Positions 1-21,588 of a stretch of 64,000 bases of DNA are shown here, piece by piece. Under the pieces are notes generated by a model. That model saw only the letters and a list, made by a program, of their open reading frames with translations. It was not told the DNA's origin and searched no databases. The stretch comes from Escherichia coli (lineage in GTDB: Bacteria > Pseudomonadota > Gammaproteobacteria > Enterobacterales > Enterobacteriaceae): the NCBI RefSeq assembly GCF_003334305.1, contig NZ_QOWS01000018.1. The stretch is one strand, 5' to 3'. Each line of letters starts with the position of its first letter. The first letter of the stretch is position 1. The position numbers and the translations under genes are program-made.

Positions 1-102
<102 letters not shown>

Positions 103-6264: not shown

Positions 6265-8877
6265 ATGACTCAACAGCCACAAGCCAAATACCGTCACGAT
6301 TATCGTGCGCCGGATTACCAGATTACTGATATTGACTTGACCTTTGACCTCGACGCGCAAAAGACGGTCGTTACCGCGGTCAGCCAGGCTGTCCGTCATG
6401 GTGCATCAGATGCTCCGCTTCGTCTCAACGGCGAAGACCTCAAACTGGTTTCTGTTCATATTAATGATGAGCCGTGGACCGCCTGGAAAGAAGAAGAGGG
6501 CGCACTGGTCATCAGTAATTTGCCGGAGCGTTTTACGCTTAAGATCATTAATGAAATAAGCCCGGCGGCGAATACGGCGCTGGAAGGGCTTTATCAGTCA
6601 GGCGATGCGCTTTGCACCCAGTGTGAAGCCGAAGGTTTCCGCCATATTACGTATTATCTCGACCGCCCGGACGTGCTGGCGCGTTTTACCACCAAAATTA
6701 TTGCCGATAAAATCAAATATCCCTTCCTGCTTTCCAATGGTAACCGCGTTGCGCAAGGCGAACTCGAAAACGGACGCCATTGGGTACAGTGGCAGGACCC
6801 GTTCCCGAAACCGTGCTACCTGTTTGCGCTGGTGGCAGGCGACTTTGATGTACTGCGCGATACCTTTACCACGCGTTCTGGTCGCGAAGTAGCACTGGAG
6901 CTGTACGTCGATCGCGGCAACCTTGATCGCGCGCCGTGGGCGATGACCTCGCTGAAAAACTCCATGAAATGGGATGAAGAACGCTTTGGCCTGGAGTATG
7001 ACCTCGACATCTATATGATCGTCGCGGTGGATTTCTTCAATATGGGCGCAATGGAGAATAAGGGGCTGAATATCTTTAACTCCAAATATGTGTTGGCCCG
7101 CACCGACACCGCCACCGACAAAGATTATCTCGATATTGAACGCGTTATCGGCCATGAATATTTCCATAACTGGACCGGTAACCGAGTGACCTGCCGCGAC
7201 TGGTTCCAGCTCAGCCTGAAAGAAGGTTTAACCGTCTTCCGCGATCAGGAATTCAGCTCTGACCTTGGTTCCCGCGCGGTAAACCGTATCAATAATGTGC
7301 GCACCATGCGCGGATTGCAGTTTGCGGAAGACGCCAGCCCGATGGCGCACCCGATCCGCCCGGATATGGTCATTGAGATGAACAACTTCTACACCCTGAC
7401 CGTTTACGAGAAGGGCGCGGAAGTGATTCGCATGATCCACACCCTGCTGGGCGAAGAAAACTTCCAGAAAGGGATGCAACTCTATTTCGAGCGCCATGAT
7501 GGCAGCGCGGCAACCTGCGACGACTTTGTGCAGGCGATGGAAGATGCGTCGAATGTCGATCTCTCCCATTTCCGCCGTTGGTACAGCCAGTCCGGCACGC
7601 CGATTGTGACCGTCAAAGACGACTACAATCCGGAAACCGAGCAGTACACCCTGACCATCAGCCAGCGCACGCCAGCCACGCCGGATCAGGCAGAAAAACA
7701 GCCGCTGCATATTCCATTTGCCATCGAATTGTATGACAACGAAGGCAAAGTGATCCCGTTGCAGAAAGGCGGTCATCCGGTGAATTCCGTGCTGAACGTC
7801 ACCCAGGCGGAACAGACCTTTGTTTTTGATAATGTCTACTTCCAGCCGGTGCCTGCGCTGCTGTGCGAATTCTCTGCGCCAGTGAAACTGGAATATAAGT
7901 GGAGCGATCAGCAACTGACCTTCCTGATGCGTCATGCGCGTAATGATTTCTCCCGTTGGGATGCGGCGCAAAGTTTGCTGGCAACCTACATCAAGCTGAA
8001 CGTCGCCCGTCATCAGCAAGGGCAGCCGCTGTCTCTGCCGGTACATGTGGCTGACGCTTTCCGCGCGGTGCTGCTCGATGAGAAGATTGATCCGGCGCTG
8101 GCGGCAGAAATCCTGACGCTGCCTTCTGTCAATGAAATGGCTGAACTGTTCGATATCATCGACCCGATTGCTATTGCCGAAGTACGCGAAGCACTCACTC
8201 GTACTCTGGCGACTGAACTGGCGGATGAGCTGCTGGCTATTTACAACGCGAATTACCAGAGCGAGTACCGTGTTGAGCATGAAGATATTGCAAAACGCAC
8301 TCTGCGTAATGCCTGCCTGCGCTTCCTTGCTTTTGGTGAAACGCATCTGGCTGACGTGCTGGTGAGCAAGCAATACCATGAAGCAAACAATATGACCGAT
8401 GCGCTGGCAGCGCTTTCTGCGGCGGTTGCTGCACAGCTGCCTTGCCGTGACGCGCTGATGCAGGAGTACGACGATAAGTGGCATCAGGACGGTCTGGTGA
8501 TGGATAAATGGTTTATCCTGCAAGCCACCAGCCCGGCGGCGAATGTGCTGGAGACGGTGCGTGGTCTGTTGCAGCATCGCTCATTTACCATGAGCAACCC
8601 GAACCGTATTCGTTCGTTGATTGGTGCGTTTGCGGGCAGCAACCCGGCAGCGTTCCATGCCGAAGATGGCAGCGGTTACCAGTTCCTGGTGGAAATGCTT
8701 ACCGACCTCAACAGCCGTAACCCGCAGGTAGCTTCACGTCTGATTGAACCGCTGATTCGCCTGAAACGTTATGATGCCAAACGTCAGGAGAAAATGCGCG
8801 CGGCGCTGGAACAGTTGAAAGGGCTGGAAAATCTCTCTGGCGATCTGTACGAGAAGATCACCAAAGCACTGGCTTGA
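6265..8877 (+). CDS. pepN: Aminopeptidase N (M1 family)
   Basis: 870-aa ORF with the zinc-binding HEYFHNW (HExxH) motif and the GAMEN motif. Confidence 0.97.
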   Translation: MTQQPQAKYRHDYRAPDYQITDIDLTFDLDAQKTVVTAVSQAVRHGASDAPLRLNGEDLKLVSVHINDEPWTAWKEEEGALVISNLPERFTLKIINEISPAANTALEGLYQSGDALCTQCEAEGFRHITYYLDRPDVLARFTTKIIADKIKYPFLLSNGNRVAQGELENGRHWVQWQDPFPKPCYLFALVAGDFDVLRDTFTTRSGREVALELYVDRGNLDRAPWAMTSLKNSMKWDEERFGLEYDLDIYMIVAVDFFNMGAMENKGLNIFNSKYVLARTDTATDKDYLDIERVIGHEYFHNWTGNRVTCRDWFQLSLKEGLTVFRDQEFSSDLGSRAVNRINNVRTMRGLQFAEDASPMAHPIRPDMVIEMNNFYTLTVYEKGAEVIRMIHTLLGEENFQKGMQLYFERHDGSAATCDDFVQAMEDASNVDLSHFRRWYSQSGTPIVTVKDDYNPETEQYTLTISQRTPATPDQAEKQPLHIPFAIELYDNEGKVIPLQKGGHPVNSVLNVTQAEQTFVFDNVYFQPVPALLCEFSAPVKLEYKWSDQQLTFLMRHARNDFSRWDAAQSLLATYIKLNVARHQQGQPLSLPVHVADAFRAVLLDEKIDPALAAEILTLPSVNEMAELFDIIDPIAIAEVREALTRTLATELADELLAIYNANYQSEYRVEHEDIAKRTLRNACLRFLAFGETHLADVLVSKQYHEANNMTDALAALSAAVAAQLPCRDALMQEYDDKWHQDGLVMDKWFILQATSPAANVLETVRGLLQHRSFTMSNPNRIRSLIGAFAGSNPAAFHAEDGSGYQFLVEMLTDLNSRNPQVASRLIEPLIRLKRYDAKRQEKMRAALEQLKGLENLSGDLYEKITKALA

Positions 8878-8891
8878 TACTTTTGAGCCAA

Positions 8892-9060
8892 AATGCCTGA
8901 TGCGACGCTTGACGCGTCTTATCAGGCCTACAACTCCGTTGAAATTGCTGGTTTTGTAGGCTGGATAAGGCGTTCACGCCGCATCCGGCAGCCGTGCCCA
9001 ACTGCCTGATGCGATGCTTGACGTGTCTTATCAGGCCTACTAGTCCGTTGAAAATGCTGG
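8892..9060. repeat. Cluster of REP palindromic units (BIME-like)
   Basis: Two near-identical copies of gcctgatgcgaCgcttgacgCgtcttatcaggcctac (8895-8930 and 9004-9040) flanking gtaggctggataaggcgttcacgccgcatccggcagc (8956-8992). Confidence 0.85.
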
Positions 9061-9083
9061 TTTTGTGCGCCACATCCGGCATA

Positions 9084-9851
9084 TTAACCATGACGCCGAA
9101 TCAGTTGTTCAGAATGCCCACGCCGCATTACCCGTTGCAATACTTCCGCTTCCAGCTCCGCTAATCGCACCGACCCTAACCGGCGCGGACGAGGGATATC
9201 CACCGTCAAATCCAGACCAATTTTTCCCTCTTCAATTAACAGCACCCGGTCAGCCATTGCTACCGCTTCGCTCACATCATGCGTCACCAACAGTACGGTA
9301 AAGCCGTGCTGCTGCCAAAGTGACACAATCAAATCCTGCATCTCGAGTCGCGTTAAGGCGTCCAGCGCCCCGAGCGGTTCATCAAGCAACAATAAACCCG
9401 GTCGATGAATCAACGCTCTTGCCAGCGCCACACGCTGTTTCTGCCCGCCAGAAAGTGCGGCAGGCCATTCCCCGGCGCGATTCTCCAGTCCTACTGCAGC
9501 CAACGCCCGACGCGCGGCATCGCGCCACTGGCCTTTAAGGCCTAACCCAACGTTATCAATCACCGATTTCCACGGCAGCAGACGCGCATCCTGAAACATC
9601 ATTCGCGTGTCTTCCTGAATCTCAGCCAGCGGTGTGGTGCCCGCTAACACATCGCCTGCGGTTGGCGTTTCCAGACCTGCCAGCAGGCGCAGCAGGGTAC
9701 TTTTGCCACCACCGCTGCGGCCCACCACCGCCACAAACTGACCTGCCGGAATATGTAAATCCAGTTGGTTCAGGACGATATTTTCCGCGTAATGTTTGCT
9801 TACTGCATTGAGCAACAATGGTGTGCCCTGGTTCAGACGAGCAGTATTCAT
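9084..9851 (-). CDS. ssuB: Aliphatic sulfonate ABC transporter, ATP-binding subunit
   Basis: 255 aa; Walker [13 protein letters not shown] signature LSGGQKQR, Walker B LLLLDEP. Confidence 0.95.
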
Positions 9852-20492: not shown

Positions 20493-20577
20493 TTTTTTGC
20501 CGCAGGTCAATTCCCTTTTGGTCCGAACTCGCACATAATACGCCCCCGGTTTGCACACCGGGAATCCAGGAGAGTTC

Positions 20578-21588
20578 ATGTACTACCCCTTCGTTCGTAA
20601 AGCCCTTTTCCAGCTCGATCCAGAGCGCGCTCATGAGTTTACTTTTCAGCAATTACGCCGTATTACAGGAACGCCGTTTGAAGCACTGGTGCGGCAGAAA
20701 GTGCCTGCGAAACCTGTTAACTGCATGGGCCTGACGTTTAAAAATCCGCTTGGTCTGGCAGCCGGTCTTGATAAAGACGGGGAGTGCATTGACGCGTTAG
20801 GCGCGATGGGATTTGGATCGATCGAGATCGGTACCGTCACGCCACGTCCACAGCCAGGTAATGACAAGCCGCGTCTCTTTCGTCTGGTAGATGCCGAAGG
20901 TTTGATCAACCGTATGGGCTTTAATAATCTTGGCGTTGATAACCTCGTAGAGAACGTAAAAAAGGCCCATTATGACGGCGTCCTGGGTATTAACATCGGC
21001 AAAAATAAAGATACTCCAGTGGAGCAGGGCAAAGATGACTATCTGATTTGTATGGAAAAAATCTATGCCTATGCGGGATATATCGCCATCAATATTTCAT
21101 CGCCGAATACCCCAGGATTACGCACGCTGCAATATGGTGAAGCGCTGGATGATCTCTTAACCGCGATTAAAAATAAGCAAAATGATTTGCAAGCGATGCA
21201 CCATAAATATGTGCCGATCGCAGTGAAGATCGCGCCGGATCTTTCTGAAGAAGAATTGATCCAGGTTGCCGATAGTTTAGTTCGCCATAATATTGATGGC
21301 GTTATTGCAACCAATACCACACTCGATCGTTCTCTTGTTCAGGGAATGAAAAATTGCGATCAAACCGGTGGCTTAAGTGGTCGTCCGCTTCAGTTAAAAA
21401 GCACCGAAATTATTCGCCGCTTGTCACTGGAATTAAACGGTCGCTTACCGATCATCGGTGTTGGCGGCATCGACTCGGTTATCGCTGCGCGTGAAAAGAT
21501 TGCTGCGGGTGCCTCACTGGTGCAAATTTATTCTGGTTTTATTTTTAAAGGTCCGCCGCTGATTAAAGAAATCGTTACCCATATCTAA
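20578..21588 (+). CDS. pyrD: Dihydroorotate dehydrogenase (quinone)
   Basis: Track ORF begins at a TTG; trimmed to the ATG giving [21 protein letters not shown] (336 aa). Confidence 0.95.

Follow-up and report, generated by a model that had tools for sequence, protein, structure and literature searches.

The 206-bp gap (8878-9083) between the stop codons of the convergent genes pepN and ssuB, within a 64,000-nt stretch of Escherichia coli DNA (contig NZ_QOWS01000018.1, assembly GCF_003334305.1; hereafter the window), is almost certainly occupied by a BIME-2. Among the bacterial interspersed mosaic elements (BIMEs), which are E. coli clusters of repetitive extragenic palindromes (REPs), this is the class that is amplified in tandem. 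The identity as BIME-2, an old residence in this gap and a mechanism acting at RNA 3' ends are probably the correct joint explanation of the element. REP and BIME elements were first described in E. coli and have a history of about 40 years. The element is of a known, textbook kind and is ordinary for this species. What can be added is that this copy is absent from K-12, is the ancestral state in Escherichia and alternates in the population with a conventional terminator-like hairpin. In the literature searched, no paper was found that names pepN, ssuB and REP together.

The gene for aminopeptidase N, pepN, lies on the plus strand (6265-8877, with the TGA stop at 8875-8877, according to the list of open reading frames and the RefSeq annotation of the identical locus of strain M8), and ssuB, the final gene of the ssuEADCB operon, on the minus strand (9084-9851, stop codon 9084-9086). 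Behind the pepN stop, a spacer of 17 nt (8878-8894), delimited from the sequence and the orthologue alignment, leads to the first stem. REP1 (8895-8931, plus strand) is of z2 type, carries a CTAC tail at 8928-8931 and matches the z2 consensus at 37/37 positions. It is joined tail to tail, by a 24-nt linker of locus-specific sequence (8932-8955), to REP2, an inverted unit of y type (8956-8989, minus strand; GTAG at 8956-8959 on the plus strand), which matches the y consensus at 33/34 positions and keeps a two-base mismatch in its stem. The linker was placed in the class named l by its length only. A 14-nt head-to-head S linker, delimited in the sequence and covered by the Rfam match given below, occupies 8990-9003 and is followed by REP3, again of z2 type (9004-9040, plus strand; CTAC at 9037-9040; 35/37 to the consensus). 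Two transitions in REP3 have each left a G-U pair in the stem, on the plus strand only. Alignment of the two units then identifies a second copy of the l linker (9041-9064), after which comes y' (9065-9081, minus strand), the remnant of a y REP that lacks about 18 nt internally. The remnant was recognised as a direct repeat, since the segment 8977-8990 recurs at 9068-9081 with 13 of 14 positions identical; it keeps only the GT of GTAG, and 2 nt (9082-9083) separate it from the ssuB stop codon. It is present in all Escherichia orthologues, in full length in E. albertii. The preliminary description had read three REP units of alternating orientation in the gap; the three complete units are real, but this fourth, truncated one had been missed. 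Two short open reading frames across the gap (8858-9091 on the minus strand and 9065-9301 on the plus strand) were dismissed as spurious, being repeat sequence without RefSeq annotation.

Matches to the consensus strings for y, z1 and z2 were scored by blastn-short; independent support is given by Rfam, whose naRNA4 model (RF02564) matches the y-S-z2 unit at 8959-9037 on the plus strand with 76.9 bits (gathering score 59.5). This model is in effect one y-S-z2 unit of the BIME-2 known as REP325. A degenerate z2 pattern finds exactly two sites in the 64 kb, both in the gap, with 0.00 expected from 100 shuffles. A repeat finder reports a tandem duplication with a period of 109 bp (8887-8957 and 8996-9066, 90% identity over 71 nt), and the layout z2-l-y-S-z2-l-y' reads as one 109-bp z2/y unit that was duplicated locally. 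Tandem Repeats Finder reported nothing on the window, which has less than about 1.8 copies of the unit, too few for that program. Units of the same type are 95% identical in the case of z2 and 91% in that of y (3 differences in 34 positions, counted by hand). The mark of 80% identity between repeats, set in the preliminary description, is reached by the same-type pairs, whereas the cross-type y/z pairs are only 66-73% identical, which is the ordinary relation of REP subtypes.

The REPs of E. coli are described as imperfect palindromes of 30-40 nt with GTAG at the foot, divided into the types y, z1 and z2, and binding by TnpA-REP requires non-complementary bases inside the stem (PMC3333891). 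The three complete units show these features: they are 34-37 nt long, form hairpins with a GTAG/CTAC foot and an internal stem mismatch, and belong to subtype y or z2. The cluster is also wholly extragenic, lying between two stop codons, and highly repeated, as the gap sequence recurs at a median of at least 31-34 places per genome in a population sample of 5426 complete E. coli genomes, to which all genome counts below refer. A BIME-2 combines z2 and y units, with a short S linker between a REP and the inverted REP and with flanking linkers of the s, l or r kind; its tandem copies are well conserved at each locus, and their number differs among strains (PMC3333891). Here z2(+), y(-), z2(+) and y'(-) alternate, the S linker has 14 nt and the number of tandem copies varies between strains. 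The other class considered, BIME-1, which pairs z1 with y and carries an L linker with a site for integration host factor (IHF), was rejected: the gap holds no z1 unit, and the IHF core WATCARNNNNTTR has no match in 8878-9083. The proposal that a REP/BIME cluster lies between these convergent genes is thus borne out concordantly by subtype, orientation, linkers, copy number, the Rfam match and the use of the cluster as a target by IS1397.

The cluster is old. E. whittamii, Escherichia sp. E1V33 and strain E69 share its architecture, including the truncated y' beside the ssuB stop and an SsuB protein ending in RRHG-type residues. In strain SCPM-O-B-8794 (locus L006) three units are present, and there Tandem Repeats Finder gives a period of 109, 2.6 copies and 94% matches. 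E. albertii (NBRC 107761, L010 2100-2320) has a single decayed z2-l-y unit. Of ssuB only the ~30 terminal codons are left beside it, and the 1.5 kb examined behind pepN contains nothing else of the ssu operon. The number of units is one in E. albertii, two here and three in L006, the copy number having drifted within Escherichia over a range from one unit to three or more. The spacer after pepN varies as well: against the 17 nt found here it is 8-9 nt shorter, with a length of about 9 nt, in E. whittamii, in E1V33 and E69, and in the E. coli strains 33F4 and R32. By this distribution the BIME allele is older than the K-12 allele and represents the ancestral state in Escherichia.

The REP units are also better conserved than their surroundings. 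Together with the S linker they are 92-96% identical to those of three other Escherichia lineages, compared with 80-86% for third codon positions in pepN and ssuB on either side. For E. whittamii the counts are 118/123 for REP plus S against 366/455 for third positions (Fisher p = 7e-6), and for two other Escherichia lineages the Fisher p values are 0.005 and 0.002. Within the S linker, 11-12 of the 12 scored positions (8992-9003) are conserved across Escherichia species. At a similar genomic distance, the E. albertii copy has decayed to about the identity of pepN third positions (78%), as judged by eye. The REPs thus do not drift freely in E. coli and its closest relatives. Their conservation could be due to locus-specific selection or to sequence transfer among REPs, in which the REP-associated tyrosine transposase RayT may take part. 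The gene rayT lies outside the window; in its K-12 form it is detectable by megablast in 3569 of the genomes. In Citrobacter, Enterobacter, Klebsiella and other genera, the pepN-ssuB gap holds their own, unrelated palindromic repeats, so that this junction has persistently harboured elements of this kind. One of them, a conserved palindrome of approximately CCCTCTCCCTGTGGGAGAGGGCCGGGGTGAGGGCA, stands beside the ssuB stop in many species (Enterobacter, Leclercia, Lelliottia and relatives; L011-L013, L037, L041, L042, L060, L072, L075, L076, L079) and is a genus-level repeat at the position of the Escherichia BIME.

Within E. coli the junction exists in two forms. The BIME query is covered to at least 80% in 2062-2063 of the genomes, and 3166 (58%) have the K-12 form of the gap. 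The l linker with its REP tails occurs in 2250 genomes (41.5%), only in those carrying the BIME allele. Each of them has it at 1-4 places (median 2), in keeping with the copies at pepN-ssuB, and this restriction to one locus, as far as sequence can tell, fits local amplification. About 190 genomes have the l linker and lack the intact locus. The K-12 gap measures only 42 bp. It contains a hairpin with a perfect 13-bp stem, CCGAATGGCGGC-loop-GCCGCCATTCGG, of -25 kcal/mol, followed by TTATTTAT on the ssu strand, and was scored as terminator-like. The segment that differs between the alleles is 8880-9107 here (228 bp) and 993237-993300 of NC_000913.3 (L005; 64 bp) in K-12, with homology stopping at 8879/8880 and picking up again at 9108. 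Simple excision or insertion of the BIME was rejected as the cause of this dimorphism, because the difference reaches 24 nt into ssuB and recodes its final eight codons, so that SsuB ends in ...SEQLIRRHG here and in ...SETRLRKQG in K-12. The two alleles are therefore related by replacement and not by a clean insertion or excision, the old BIME having been replaced in about 58% of E. coli by a short segment with an ordinary terminator-like hairpin. A search for a donor of the 64-bp K-12 segment (AATAACCGAATGGCGGCAATAGCGCCGCCATTCGGGGAATTTACCCCTGTTTTCTCAGGCGAGT) in 80 enterobacterial pepN loci and the window gave only 12-nt chance matches. The element missing from K-12 cannot appear in REP catalogues based on that strain; among the entries listed for the region, the RefSeq K-12 record has no REP features. 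The pepN-ssuB locus of the window is 100% identical to that of strain M8. Relative to M8, gene coordinates are shifted by 11 nt by ~56 kb, and the window does not follow that strain throughout.

Further states of the BIME allele are found among strains. The 5' arm of REP1 is lost in strains 536 and MS8320. In strains EC1 (L088 733-2203) and WP8-S18-ESBL-07 (L089), the loop of REP1 is interrupted by IS1397, an insertion sequence specific to REPs (PMC1525189), with a TGAC duplication on its flanks, and REP1 is by this token recognised as a REP in vivo.

Folding of the gap as RNA gives stable structures on both strands, with -98.2 kcal/mol (z = -6.8) on the plus strand and -90.1 kcal/mol (z = -5.3) on the minus strand. 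On the plus and minus strands, respectively, REP1 folds with -21.3 and -21.8 kcal/mol, REP2 with -18.7 and -15.1 kcal/mol and REP3 with -16.9 and -12.2 kcal/mol; for the unit hairpins of the plus strand, 0/200 shuffles fold as well. The weaker fold of REP3 on the minus strand arises because its two transitions keep G-U pairs only on the plus strand. Strand-specific selection on REP3, favouring the pepN-sense RNA, was considered and set aside, two transitions being too few for such an argument. The region of y' folds no better than shuffles (z = -0.16) and has no hairpin. A pattern of stem plus T run was searched for on both strands of 8600-9400 and was found on neither, in agreement with the preliminary description, which saw no separate terminator of this type. 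An intrinsic (Rho-independent) terminator in the gap was accordingly rejected: no GC-rich stem-loop stands directly before a T run, as one does in the K-12 allele.

It is proposed that both convergent transcripts would run into the cluster and would end in, or be trimmed back to, the stable REP hairpins. These hairpins would block 3'-to-5' exonucleases and would also give partial, partly Rho-dependent termination, leading to less read-through into the facing gene. The proposal draws on REP325, the BIME-2 described as terminating transcription in a partly Rho-dependent manner and as stabilising the upstream mRNA (bioRxiv 10.64898/2026.03.23.713779), and the earlier suggestion that the cluster acts as a 3'-end stabiliser or partial terminator is plausible in that it is consistent with the published behaviour of REP325. 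According to the same source, REPs are present in 207/704 convergent gaps (~30%), and expression of convergent pairs is higher when a REP is present (bioRxiv 10.64898/2026.03.23.713779); in the window, counted from the annotation, they are present at 3/10 convergent junctions. The terminator-like hairpin of K-12 at the same junction is consistent with a need for some strong bidirectional hairpin there. By analogy with these cases, a measurable role at the 3' ends of the pepN RNA, the ssuB RNA or both is somewhat favoured. Several observations weigh against it. About 58% of strains do without the BIME, and deletion of the REP1 5' arm or insertion of IS1397 is tolerated in some of those that have it; any host function must therefore be dispensable or replaceable. 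Among ten Escherichia orthologues, no compensatory double changes were found in the stems, whose variation is one-sided, giving mismatches or G-U pairs. The high conservation of the REPs could come from copying between REPs and not from selection at this locus. Finally, the effect of REPs on mRNA half-lives is not uniform (bioRxiv 10.64898/2026.03.23.713779).

Much of the same evidence bears on the alternative that the cluster is a selfish or neutral repeat with no function here, lying in a gap that tolerates insertions and kept uniform by RayT or by copying between REPs. The dimorphism of the locus, the tolerated arm deletions and IS1397 insertions, and the one-sided stem variation would all be expected of such a repeat. 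It would also agree with the decay of the E. albertii copy to about the level of pepN third positions, with the unrelated genus-specific palindromes that fill this gap in other genera, and with the locus-specific l linker, which is what local amplification should produce. However, REP and S positions are conserved significantly above third codon positions in three Escherichia lineages, and the gap without a BIME still holds a strong hairpin. Terminator and stabiliser effects were moreover measured for another BIME-2 (bioRxiv 10.64898/2026.03.23.713779), and with rayT found in only 3569/5426 genomes, upkeep by RayT cannot be universal. The absence of function is in our view a minority possibility, though the main rival.

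A second alternative places the main role in the DNA, as a strong gyrase site independent of transcription or as a topological barrier where positive supercoils converge. BIMEs have been described as topological insulators and gyrase-binding sites (PMC3333891), and gyrase cleavage sites are over-represented in BIME-2, in y more than in z2, and persist under inhibition of transcription (PMC6379681). One intact y unit is present here, between convergent units, and at the DNA level it would be the likely preferred site for DNA gyrase. However, only some BIME-2 elements are cleaved (PMC6379681), the intact y unit of the pepN-ssuB copy is a single one and the K-12 allele has no REP at the junction at all. 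As the main role this is rather unlikely. Use of this y unit by gyrase as such, judged from the related elements, has about an even chance and is compatible with the proposed role at RNA 3' ends.

A lowering of pepN or ssuB translation by stalled terminating ribosomes is highly improbable. Translation can be down-regulated where a REP lies within 15 nt of the stop codon (Liang et al., 2015, cited through PMC12306157), and the spacer of only ~9 nt that follows pepN in several further lineages of Escherichia falls inside the range reported there. In the window, however, the REP1 stem begins 17 nt past the pepN stop, outside this range, and the unit beside the ssuB stop is truncated and unfolded, the first real hairpin of the ssuB transcript being 43 nt away; a REP acting as translational attenuator was rejected on this basis for both genes. 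Least probable of all is a nucleoid-associated RNA that resembles naRNA4 and condenses the chromosome with HU, since the Rfam match above the gathering score, which is what speaks for it, should be obtained with any BIME-2 by a model that is in effect a y-S-z2 unit, and REP325/naRNA4 gave no measurable nucleoid compaction and no stable HU-DNA-RNA complex (bioRxiv 10.64898/2026.03.23.713779).

Returning to the proposed role at RNA 3' ends, the states seen at the pepN-ssuB junction comprise a BIME-2 with one to at least three units, one with the REP1 arm deleted, one interrupted by IS1397 and the 64-bp hairpin replacement that recodes the last eight SsuB residues. It may tentatively be suggested, with little confidence, that they are a natural allelic series of one 3'-end module. 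If both alleles persist because they give pepN and the sulfur-starvation operon ssu different levels of read-through or mRNA stability, the effect of REP clusters placed between convergent genes could readily be tested at this junction. Natural strains provide a matched pair of alleles together with variants in copy number, arm deletion and IS disruption at a single convergent junction, and with them the contribution of a BIME-2 to termination, mRNA stability and supercoiling could be measured without artificial constructs. The overall importance is small and the value mainly practical.

Other REPs occur in the window, and the three further sites listed in the preliminary description are all real by consensus matching. 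A single z1-type REP lies between the convergent genes gloC and aspC (76-102, minus strand; 27/27 to the consensus), and a single y-type REP between the convergent appA and etk (57795-57828, minus strand; 32/34). An atypical REP, of which only arms and tail match, is located between cbdX (appX) and appA, which are on the same strand (56353-56388, minus strand). Its stem starts 9 nt past the cbdX stop codon (56345-56347), and at this distance it belongs to the class proposed to attenuate translation of the upstream gene. Two further Rfam matches above the gathering score were both expected: the PyrD leader at 20510-20583 (97.9 bits), upstream of pyrD, and a tRNA at 47438-47522, which is a tRNA-Ser in the annotation of strain M8.

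The cluster can be compared with several known systems. It resembles bidirectional intrinsic terminators, such as that of the K-12 allele, in its position and in having stable GC-rich hairpins on both strands, with -12 to -22 kcal/mol per REP here and -25 kcal/mol in K-12. The REPs differ from them in that no T/U run follows the stem, in the conserved internal mismatch and the GTAG/CTAC foot, and in belonging to a family repeated many times per genome. With the BIME-2 class the cluster shares the alternation of y and z2, the short head-to-head S linker and the longer tail-to-tail linkers, as well as a unit of ~100 bp amplified in tandem, with strain-variable copy number, extragenically between gene ends. 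In contrast to the class it is small, consisting of one complete y-S-z2 that is flanked by a z2 at one end and by a truncated y at the other, and its l linker is specific to the locus. REP325/naRNA4, the BIME-2 of yjdM-yjdN, has the same y-S-z2 sequence and predicted structure, to judge by the 76.9 bits, and both elements are located in a 3' untranslated region. REP325, however, lies between same-strand genes inside an operon, whereas the pepN-ssuB cluster lies between convergent units and would act on both strands. The BIME-2 between yjjV and yjjW (strain JJ1887, L094 565-1095) is likewise flanked by convergent genes and alternates y with z2. At its edge it too has an internally deleted y unit adjoining the stop codon of the facing gene, and truncated terminal units may be common at BIME edges. 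It differs from the pepN-ssuB cluster in having five units instead of two and another, shorter tail-to-tail linker.

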